Below, one piece after another: positions 170-508 of a stretch of DNA of 5,319 bases; positions within the stretch are counted from its first letter, which is position 1, and each line of letters opens with the position of its first letter. The translations under genes and the position numbers were made by a program. Origin of the DNA: a virus (taxonomy: Duplodnaviria; Heunggongvirae; Uroviricota; Caudoviricetes); IMG/VR virus record IMGVR_UViG_2548876940_000001, positions 1 through 5,319 of that record; one strand, given 5' to 3'. The notes beneath the pieces are model-generated. The model was given only the letters and a program-made list of their open reading frames with translations. It did no database searches and was not told the origin of the DNA.

Positions 170-508
170 CTATGACCATTTTTTATTTGGATTTCGTTGG
201 TGAGCGTGATTAACAACTCTGTGCATTACATCCTCATATTTTTCATCTTCAATTTTTTCGACATCGCGAGGAAATGGTGTTGCTAATGCTTTGTCAACTT
301 TGTCCATTGGGTCTTCATTAATCTTATATTCAGGACCGTCATCTATAGCATTAAATCCAGGTGTTACACCGTTTTTTAATGCATATGCTATCCTCTTTTC
401 CCATCTCGCTATTCTCCTCCTGTCTCGAGATGTAAGACCTCTATCAGATACTTTTCTGTTTTGTCCGCGGTCAGGATTAACATAAATAGTCTTTTTCACC
501 ATAAGCAT
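170..508 (-). CDS. Hypothetical protein, AT-rich cargo gene downstream of N (about 110-112 aa, highly charged, no cysteine)
   Basis: Six-frame ORF 170..514 (the track starts it at a TTG). Likely starts are ATG 508..506 (MLMVKK...) or ATG 502..500 (MVKK...), only 2 or 8 nt past the N-frame stop at 513..511. Stop TAG at 172..170 is followed by the terminator. Spot counts give about 35-37% GC against about 50% in O/P. No family recognised. Confidence 0.5.
   Translation of the reverse strand: MLMVKKTIYVNPDRGQNRKVSDRGLTSRDRRRIARWEKRIAYALKNGVTPGFNAIDDGPEYKINEDPMDKVDKALATPFPRDVEKIEDEKYEDVMHRVVNHAHQRNPNKKWS

Follow-up and report, generated by a model that had tools for sequence, protein, structure and literature searches.

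A near-identical copy of the coliphage HK022 gene nun behind a frameshifted N gene in a lambdoid prophage

The minus-strand open reading frame (ORF) at positions 170..508 of the window, by which we mean the whole 5,319-nucleotide stretch of viral DNA analysed here (positions 1 to 5,319 of the IMG/VR record IMGVR_UViG_2548876940_000001), is identified from its sequence, with high confidence, as nun, the transcription-arrest and superinfection-exclusion gene first known from coliphage HK022, and the carrier as a lambdoid prophage with phage-21-type N/nut specificity. Given that the gene is already known, as is its mechanism, the novelty of the gene itself is nil; few phage exclusion factors have been characterised as well as Nun, for which NMR and cryo-EM structures are available, and the discovery value of finding it here is small. 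The side results are modest as well, and consist of the N-nun tandem as the normal arrangement, a remnant of N in HK022, N pseudogenes accompanied by an intact nun, and a gap in annotation. The features of the window to which the text refers are the following.

170..508, minus strand: nun coding sequence, 112 codons from the ATG at 506-508 to the stop codon TAG at 170-172
147..171, minus strand: intrinsic terminator 3' of nun, from the terminator scan, overlapping the TAG stop
1..36, minus strand: opening 12 codons (MTKSWSVPFPES) of the pL-operon gene that comes next, which runs past the contig end and is complete in loci L029 and L074
509..628, minus strand: stretch of 120 nt just upstream of nun, corresponding to the 3'-terminal part of the N frame, 95.8% identical to HK022
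511..803, minus strand: N antiterminator pseudogene (ATG 801-803, original stop TGA 511-513), from the alignment to mEp235, the ORF list and PHROG 271
914..953, minus strand: nutL of the phage-21 type, with boxA GCTCTTTAACA at 943-953 and the boxB hairpin TCTCAACCTAACCGTTGAGA at 914-933, near-identical to the phage 21 nutL/boxA-L annotation
1000..1028, minus strand: pL promoter (TTGACC, 17-nt spacer, TAAATT), from the promoter scan, aligning to the phage 21 pL/OL region
1102..1119, minus strand: intrinsic terminator after the repressor gene, from the terminator scan, an equivalent of which is annotated in phage 21
1118..1768, minus strand: prophage repressor, with an HTH domain (PF01381) and a LexA-like Peptidase_S24 domain (PF00717) by Pfam
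2041..2081, plus strand: nutR of the phage-21 type, with boxA at 2041-2051 and boxB TTCACCTCTAACCGGGTGAG at 2062-2081, matching the phage 21 boxA-R/nutR annotation

Identity, reading frame and terminator of the gene

A PDB sequence search matched the product of the ORF to chain N of entry 6ALG (HK022 'Transcription termination factor nun') at 108 of 109 residues (E = 2.6e-71), and its arginine-rich motif to the Nun peptide of entry 1HJI, which was solved with lambda boxB RNA, at 26 of 26 residues (DRGLTSRDRRRIARWEKRIAYALKNG). The sole mismatch with HK022 Nun, S11R, falls outside both the arginine-rich motif and the C-terminal segment, and is the commonest allele among 69 IMG/VR loci. PHROG 5632 ('Nun-like transcription termination factor') was matched end to end (profile positions 1-112 of 112; E = 4.8e-71) with no other significant PHROG, and the same DNA carries a Nun annotation in mEp235, mEpX1, HK022, HK75, O276 and PA28. 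Residues H93, R94, N97, H98, H100, R102, K106, K107 and W108 of the C-terminal arrest segment are all present in the ORF product, the functional roles of C-terminal Nun residues having been described in a cryo-EM study (PMC5386594). Across aligned homologues of 57-67% identity, one of which comes from Citrobacter braakii, R94, N97, H98, H100, K106, K107 and W108 were unchanged, as was the DRRRxxRW core of the arginine-rich motif.

The identification came only via PHROGs and the PDB sequence search. Pfam returned no family for the product at E <= 1 (N_peptide, Ral and SieB included), scans against NCBIfam and PADLOC gave no family, and Rfam gave none in the window at E <= 0.1. The initial annotation, made from the letters alone, had recognised no family and suggested a possibly undescribed accessory function; this suggestion is refuted by the matches to HK022 Nun and PHROG 5632, and a clear hit to a characterised family has been found, complete with solved structures and Nun labels in phage records. 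Its guess at the functional class was nevertheless right in kind, nun being a superinfection-exclusion function, and the analogy that it drew with lambda ral and sieB stands as far as position is concerned but not for sequence, with no relation seen in Pfam at E <= 1 and only the Nun-like family in PHROGs.

Among 5,426 complete E. coli genomes, 221 (4.1%) were found to carry nun, always on the chromosome, and many of these belong to EHEC O26, O111 and O55. In nearly all 221 the RefSeq label of the gene is 'hypothetical protein'. Together with the lack of a Nun model in Pfam, NCBIfam and PADLOC, this label causes defence-system surveys to miss nun, and it probably accounts for the failure of the initial annotation to place the gene.

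The longest version of the reading frame in the ORF list spans 170..514 (minus strand; 114 aa) and begins with TTG, and the 112-codon version starting at the ATG at 506-508 is the one annotated in X16093 and mEp235. Diverged Nun homologues all start with M-x-K-K, which makes the ATG at 500-502 the likelier initiation codon; judging from this comparison, the true nun gene most likely starts there and comprises 110 codons. Removal of the initiator Met from this 110-codon version would yield the 109-residue numbering used in the literature. The product is devoid of Cys and contains 24 Lys or Arg and 18 Asp or Glu residues (38% charged), consistent with the earlier description of a highly charged, cysteine-free protein of about 110 residues, whether 112 or 110 codons are counted. 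The GC content of nun was 37.5%, whereas O has 47.4%, P 53.6% and the window overall 46.9%, so that the original estimate of about 36% against about 50% in the replication genes was roughly right.

The plus strand also holds an ORF across this region (291..485; 64 codons, starting with TTG), and the initial annotation had allowed that coding statistics might favour it. If this ORF were the real gene, the minus-strand ORF would be incidental, a reading to which we attach a negligible probability. Comparison of the 27 unique nun DNA sequences placed 36 of 53 variable sites at codon position 3. In close relatives, the synonymous/nonsynonymous counts were 36/22 for the nun frame and 34/23 for the antisense ORF, which is as good a score; these counts fail to separate the two strands because the third codon positions of both frames coincide. 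The antisense ORF, however, is interrupted by an internal stop in three of the 27 unique E. coli-type sequences (HK75, which is locus L057, and loci L064 and L065), and in the diverged loci L068 (67% identical) and L071 (58%) every antisense frame contains stops where the nun frame is open and its protein conserved. It is, moreover, the minus-strand product that has been purified and its structure solved (PDB 6ALG; PMC5386594). The nun frame was open in all 65 full-length copies, in addition to the diverged L068 and L071; the gene is thus kept in relatives, which disposes of the doubt that it might lack conservation, and the proposed advantage of the antisense ORF finds no support. As a candidate gene, ORF 291..485 had already been refuted by the stops in the diverged homologues. 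It is best described as a shadow ORF that codon-position statistics cannot reject, and that persists in close relatives only through the shared third positions.

Directly 3' of nun lies a hairpin of sequence AGCCCAC-UUCG-GUGGGUUUUUUAUU (AGCCCAC-UUCG-GUGGG-UUUUUUAUU), in which the stem CCCAC, the loop UUCG and the stem GUGGG occupy positions 154-171 and are followed by a U-tract. The terminator scan that picked it up yielded five sites in 1..1200 compared to an expected 1.3 +/- 1.1. Its folding energy is unexceptional by itself (-12.3 kcal/mol; z = -1.25). The stem, on the other hand, has undergone a compensatory change from A:U to G:C, reading CCCAC/GUGGG in the window and CCCGC/GCGGG in HK022 and L068, with the hairpin kept. 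The consensus scan and the compensatory change are more informative than the folding energy for this terminator, and both bear out the proposal that the gene is closed by a UUCG-tetraloop terminator of its own. In the PA28/Stx1a-phage group (L058-L063), the hairpin 3' of nun is degraded (CCCACTTCGGTAGATTTTATT).

A broken N gene and the N-nun tandem

The window corresponds to the immunity and replication region of the prophage. On the minus strand, the order is repressor, pL, nutL, N, nun and terminator, followed further on, in L074, by cIII, kil and gam, confirming the initial placement of the gene in the pL operon just after N. The plus strand carries cro, nutR, cII, O, P, a 96-aa ORF (4066..4356), a 68-aa ORF (4429..4635), ninB and a Dam-like methylase gene. 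The gene that follows the nun terminator encodes a 156-aa protein (MTKSWSVPFPESE...), a complete copy of which is found at L029 2973..3443; this protein belongs to PHROG 1636, 'unknown function' (E = 2.7e-112), matches no Pfam family, and has a different gene in its slot in mEp235. If any accessory gene of the region deserves to be called uncharacterised, it is this 156-aa gene and not nun.

The earlier statement that the gene comes directly after the N-frame stop holds if the N frame is read at its 3' end, where the TGA (511-513) ends 2 nt before the nun ATG at 508, but N itself is frameshifted in the window. Compared to mEp235 and to all full-span matches in the 5,426 complete E. coli genomes, it has lost 13 bp (ATGAAGCACTGGC) at the junction of positions 713 and 712, which shifts the frame after codon 30 and leads to a premature TAA at 696-698. 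The N-terminal piece is arginine-rich in the manner of phage 21, and matches PHROG 271 and, weakly, Pfam N_peptide (E = 0.012). The truncated product (696..803) still has the arginine-rich motif; going by the domain map of lambda N, it presumably lacks the NusA- and polymerase-binding parts. The deletion junction was absent from the GTDB species-representative genomes and, as a match spanning the junction, from the 5,426 complete E. coli genomes. The same junction did turn up in the IMG/VR locus L029 and, when the truncated product was looked up exactly, in five public contigs from separate datasets (L074-L078); exact look-ups of alternative ORF products found nothing. This recurrence in L029 and the five contigs indicates that the N lesion is not a read error. 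Over 3 kb, the window differs from L029, its closest relative, by 3 mismatches and 1 indel (99.87% identity). The indel, 1 nt long, and one of the substitutions fall in the OR region (1811 and 1824, between the repressor gene and cro), and the other two substitutions in the dead N gene (554 and 654).

Owing to the deletion in N, the prophage is probably defective for delayed-early expression. With N broken, it may be a decaying prophage in which nun is an unexpressed passenger. A 7-bp deletion has independently shifted the N frame near codon 62 in a second N-nun locus, L021. Despite their frameshifted N genes, the window, L029, the five contigs and L021 all have an intact nun. The integrity of nun where N was lost independently, through the 13-bp and the 7-bp deletions, accords with its being kept, in prophages undergoing decay, as a defence gene of benefit to the host.

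The usual description of HK022 is that Nun has taken the place of N (PMC9378689). Across the related IMG/VR loci, the picture was a different one: about 60 of 69 had a phage-21-type N/nut upstream of nun, and in about 52 of them all N was 101 aa long, with 2 nt separating its TGA from the nun ATG. Members of the PA28/Stx1a group have an N that overlaps the first 33 nt of nun. The nun-linked N is phage 21 N over residues 1-57, and then continues into a different C-terminal module. HK022 itself (L002 2388..2512) retains 117-120 nt of this nun-linked N module upstream of nun, the N frame of which reads EVVRKNRSIYCKDSNPLGNKIHAVQKIKLYSKLPYGAY; the remnant corresponds to the last 38 N codons with one substitution, and its stop codon TGA has changed to TGG. 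On this evidence from sequence comparison, the simplest reading is one which suggests that the HK022 arrangement derives from the N-nun tandem. We give an even chance to the broader proposition that substitution of N by Nun is a derived state, that the usual and probably ancestral state is nun as an add-on behind an intact N of non-lambda specificity, and that HK022 types arose when putL took the place of nutL together with the 5' two-thirds of N, so that the last 38 N codons, and probably the nun promoter, were left. The N-nun tandem was already visible in the 2012 annotation of mEp235, and a search of the literature on nun in N-bearing phages (mEp235, imm21) returned nothing relevant. The dominant natural context of nun is N plus nun rather than a replaced N, which bears both on the evolution of the system and on the question of Nun production in lysogens of these phages.

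Two further arrangements were seen. At L071 (2300..2833), the 58%-identical nun homologue comes directly after putL-like sequence, with a good Shine-Dalgarno and no N remnant, so that the pairing of put with nun exists at a greater evolutionary distance too. In L065 and L069, about 300-450 nt upstream of nun, an N with another arginine-rich N-terminus (MTVVITYLADDNARNRRRARRQAQREQ) is joined to the same C-terminal module, and is accompanied by a boxB-like hairpin, TCCCGC-CGAAAT-GCGGGA (TCCCGCCGAAATGCGGGA), the GAAA core of which recalls the loop of lambda boxB.

Expression and proposed mode of action

For Nun to be of use as immunity, the lysogen has to make it. King et al. (in 2000) reportedly mapped a constitutive promoter, P_Nun, just upstream of the nun coding sequence in HK022; two papers citing that work give no coordinates for it, and we presume that it lies within 509..628 on the minus strand. 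In the window, a consensus scan and a rough weight matrix revealed no strong sigma-70 match upstream of nun (best score 5.8 vs 11.2 for pL), and the best -35 candidate of HK022 (TTGATA) is located just outside the stretch that it has in common with the window, at the junction of put with the N remnant. With no convincing sigma-70 site, and with the HK022 candidate outside the common stretch, we can only infer that nun is expressed from the repressed prophage. Furthermore, the terminator at 1102..1119 should halt repressor transcripts before they reach N and nun, which argues against read-through into nun from the repressor promoter.

All of these observations, namely the lack of a strong promoter upstream of nun, the absence from the window of the strongest HK022 candidate -35 and the terminator behind the repressor gene, would suit a different scenario in which nun is expressed from pL only, early in infection or upon induction, and not from the repressed prophage. 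Nun would then serve in the competition of co-infecting or co-induced phages, not as standing immunity of the lysogen, and would be nearly silent here with N broken. The spacing of the two genes in intact relatives, where nun follows the N stop by 2 nt or is overlapped by N over 33 nt (PA28/Stx1a), likewise suits co-expression with N from pL. Against this scenario stands the 95.8% identity of the 120 nt upstream of nun to their counterpart in HK022, in which P_Nun is said to be situated just there. Also unexpected, should the lytic programme be required, is the intact state of nun in two lineages with independently frameshifted N genes, a small sample. On balance we consider expression from pL alone to be unlikely, and retain expression in the lysogen as the preferred reading.

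The mechanism outlined here has been established for HK022 Nun and is extended to the near-identical copy of the window. Produced in the lysogen, as we suppose, from a P_Nun-type promoter inside the 120 nt common with HK022, the window copy would exclude lambda. Its N-terminal arginine-rich helix would bind boxB of the nascent nutL or nutR RNA made by a lambda or lambda imm434 that superinfects the lysogen, competing there with lambda N. The protein's C-terminal segment would then enter the RNA polymerase elongation complex, making contact with the beta' rudder as well as with the RNA:DNA hybrid and the DNA, and translocation would be blocked at pause sites with NusA, NusB, NusE and NusG as stimulating factors. 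The arrested polymerase would finally be removed by Mfd, such that lambda early transcription would end early and the infection abort. Both this mechanism and the specificity of HK022 Nun for lambda and for lambda imm434, two phages with nut sites in common, are documented (PMC5386594; PMC4124055), and exclusion of these two phages is the only known biological role of Nun (PMC5386594; PMC4124055).

The nut sites of the carriers are of other kinds. With up to 3 mismatches allowed, the search for a lambda-type boxB came up empty in the window, as it did, with up to 2 allowed, in all 70 nun-bearing sequences. Fifty-nine of the 70 have a phage-21-type nutL and six a putL-like sequence (the HK022 type and the diverged L071), and in L065 and L069 both the arginine-rich motif of N and the boxB are of a third type. 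The carrier would be unaffected by its own Nun because its own nut sites are of the phage-21 type. One could envisage a Nun-like factor directed at another or an additional target, such as these phage-21-type nut sites of the carrier or another phage group, in view of the fact that nun here adjoins a phage-21-type N that HK022 lacks, and that Nun in excess acts independently of nut sites and is toxic (PMC4124055). The arginine-rich motif is nonetheless identical to that of HK022 Nun, from which the same RNA specificity is to be expected, and neither the window nor any nun locus examined contains a lambda-type boxB. In the literature, lambda exclusion is the sole function reported for Nun, and HK022 mutated in nun shows normal growth and lysogenisation (PMC4124055). 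A different or additional target is accordingly very unlikely, and exclusion of lambda and lambda imm434 is the role that we favour for the window copy.

Comparison with known systems

The closest known system is that of HK022 (6ALG and 1HJI; X16093 and AF069308), with which the window shares the arginine-rich motif and the C-terminal arrest segment in a protein identical at 108 of 109 positions. In both, nun is located in the pL operon with the immunity region on one side and cIII/kil on the other, and is followed by a hairpin terminator; the stem is CCCAC/GUGGG in the window against CCCGC/GCGGG in HK022, and the window has the better U-tract. The two differ in that HK022 has no N gene and relies on antitermination by put RNA, whereas nun in the window follows a phage-21-type nutL and a frameshifted N. 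The same N-nun tandem with a phage-21-type nutL is found in mEp235 (JQ182731), mEpX1 (JQ182727), Kapi1 and the prophages of EHEC O26, O111 and O55. Copies of the mEp235 type show 97-98% DNA identity to the window over the pL-N-nun stretch and possess an intact 101-aa N, in contrast to the window N, which is missing 13 bp.

Nun has been termed an N homologue in the literature (PMC4124055). Like Nun, the N antiterminators of lambda, phage 21 and P22 are small, basic proteins encoded right after nutL, whose N-terminal arginine-rich helix reads boxB and which, jointly with Nus factors, act on polymerase during elongation. Their effect is opposite to that of Nun, antitermination as against arrest, and the C-terminal segments are unrelated in sequence. 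In line with this distinction, Pfam N_peptide matches the neighbouring N fragment weakly (E = 0.012) but not the nun product at E <= 1.

The lambda genes sieB, ral and rexAB resemble nun in being AT-rich accessory prophage genes located near the immunity region and acting against other phages or restriction. They have no sequence relation to nun and work through wholly different mechanisms, Nun being specific to phages with lambda-type nut sites (PMC4124055).
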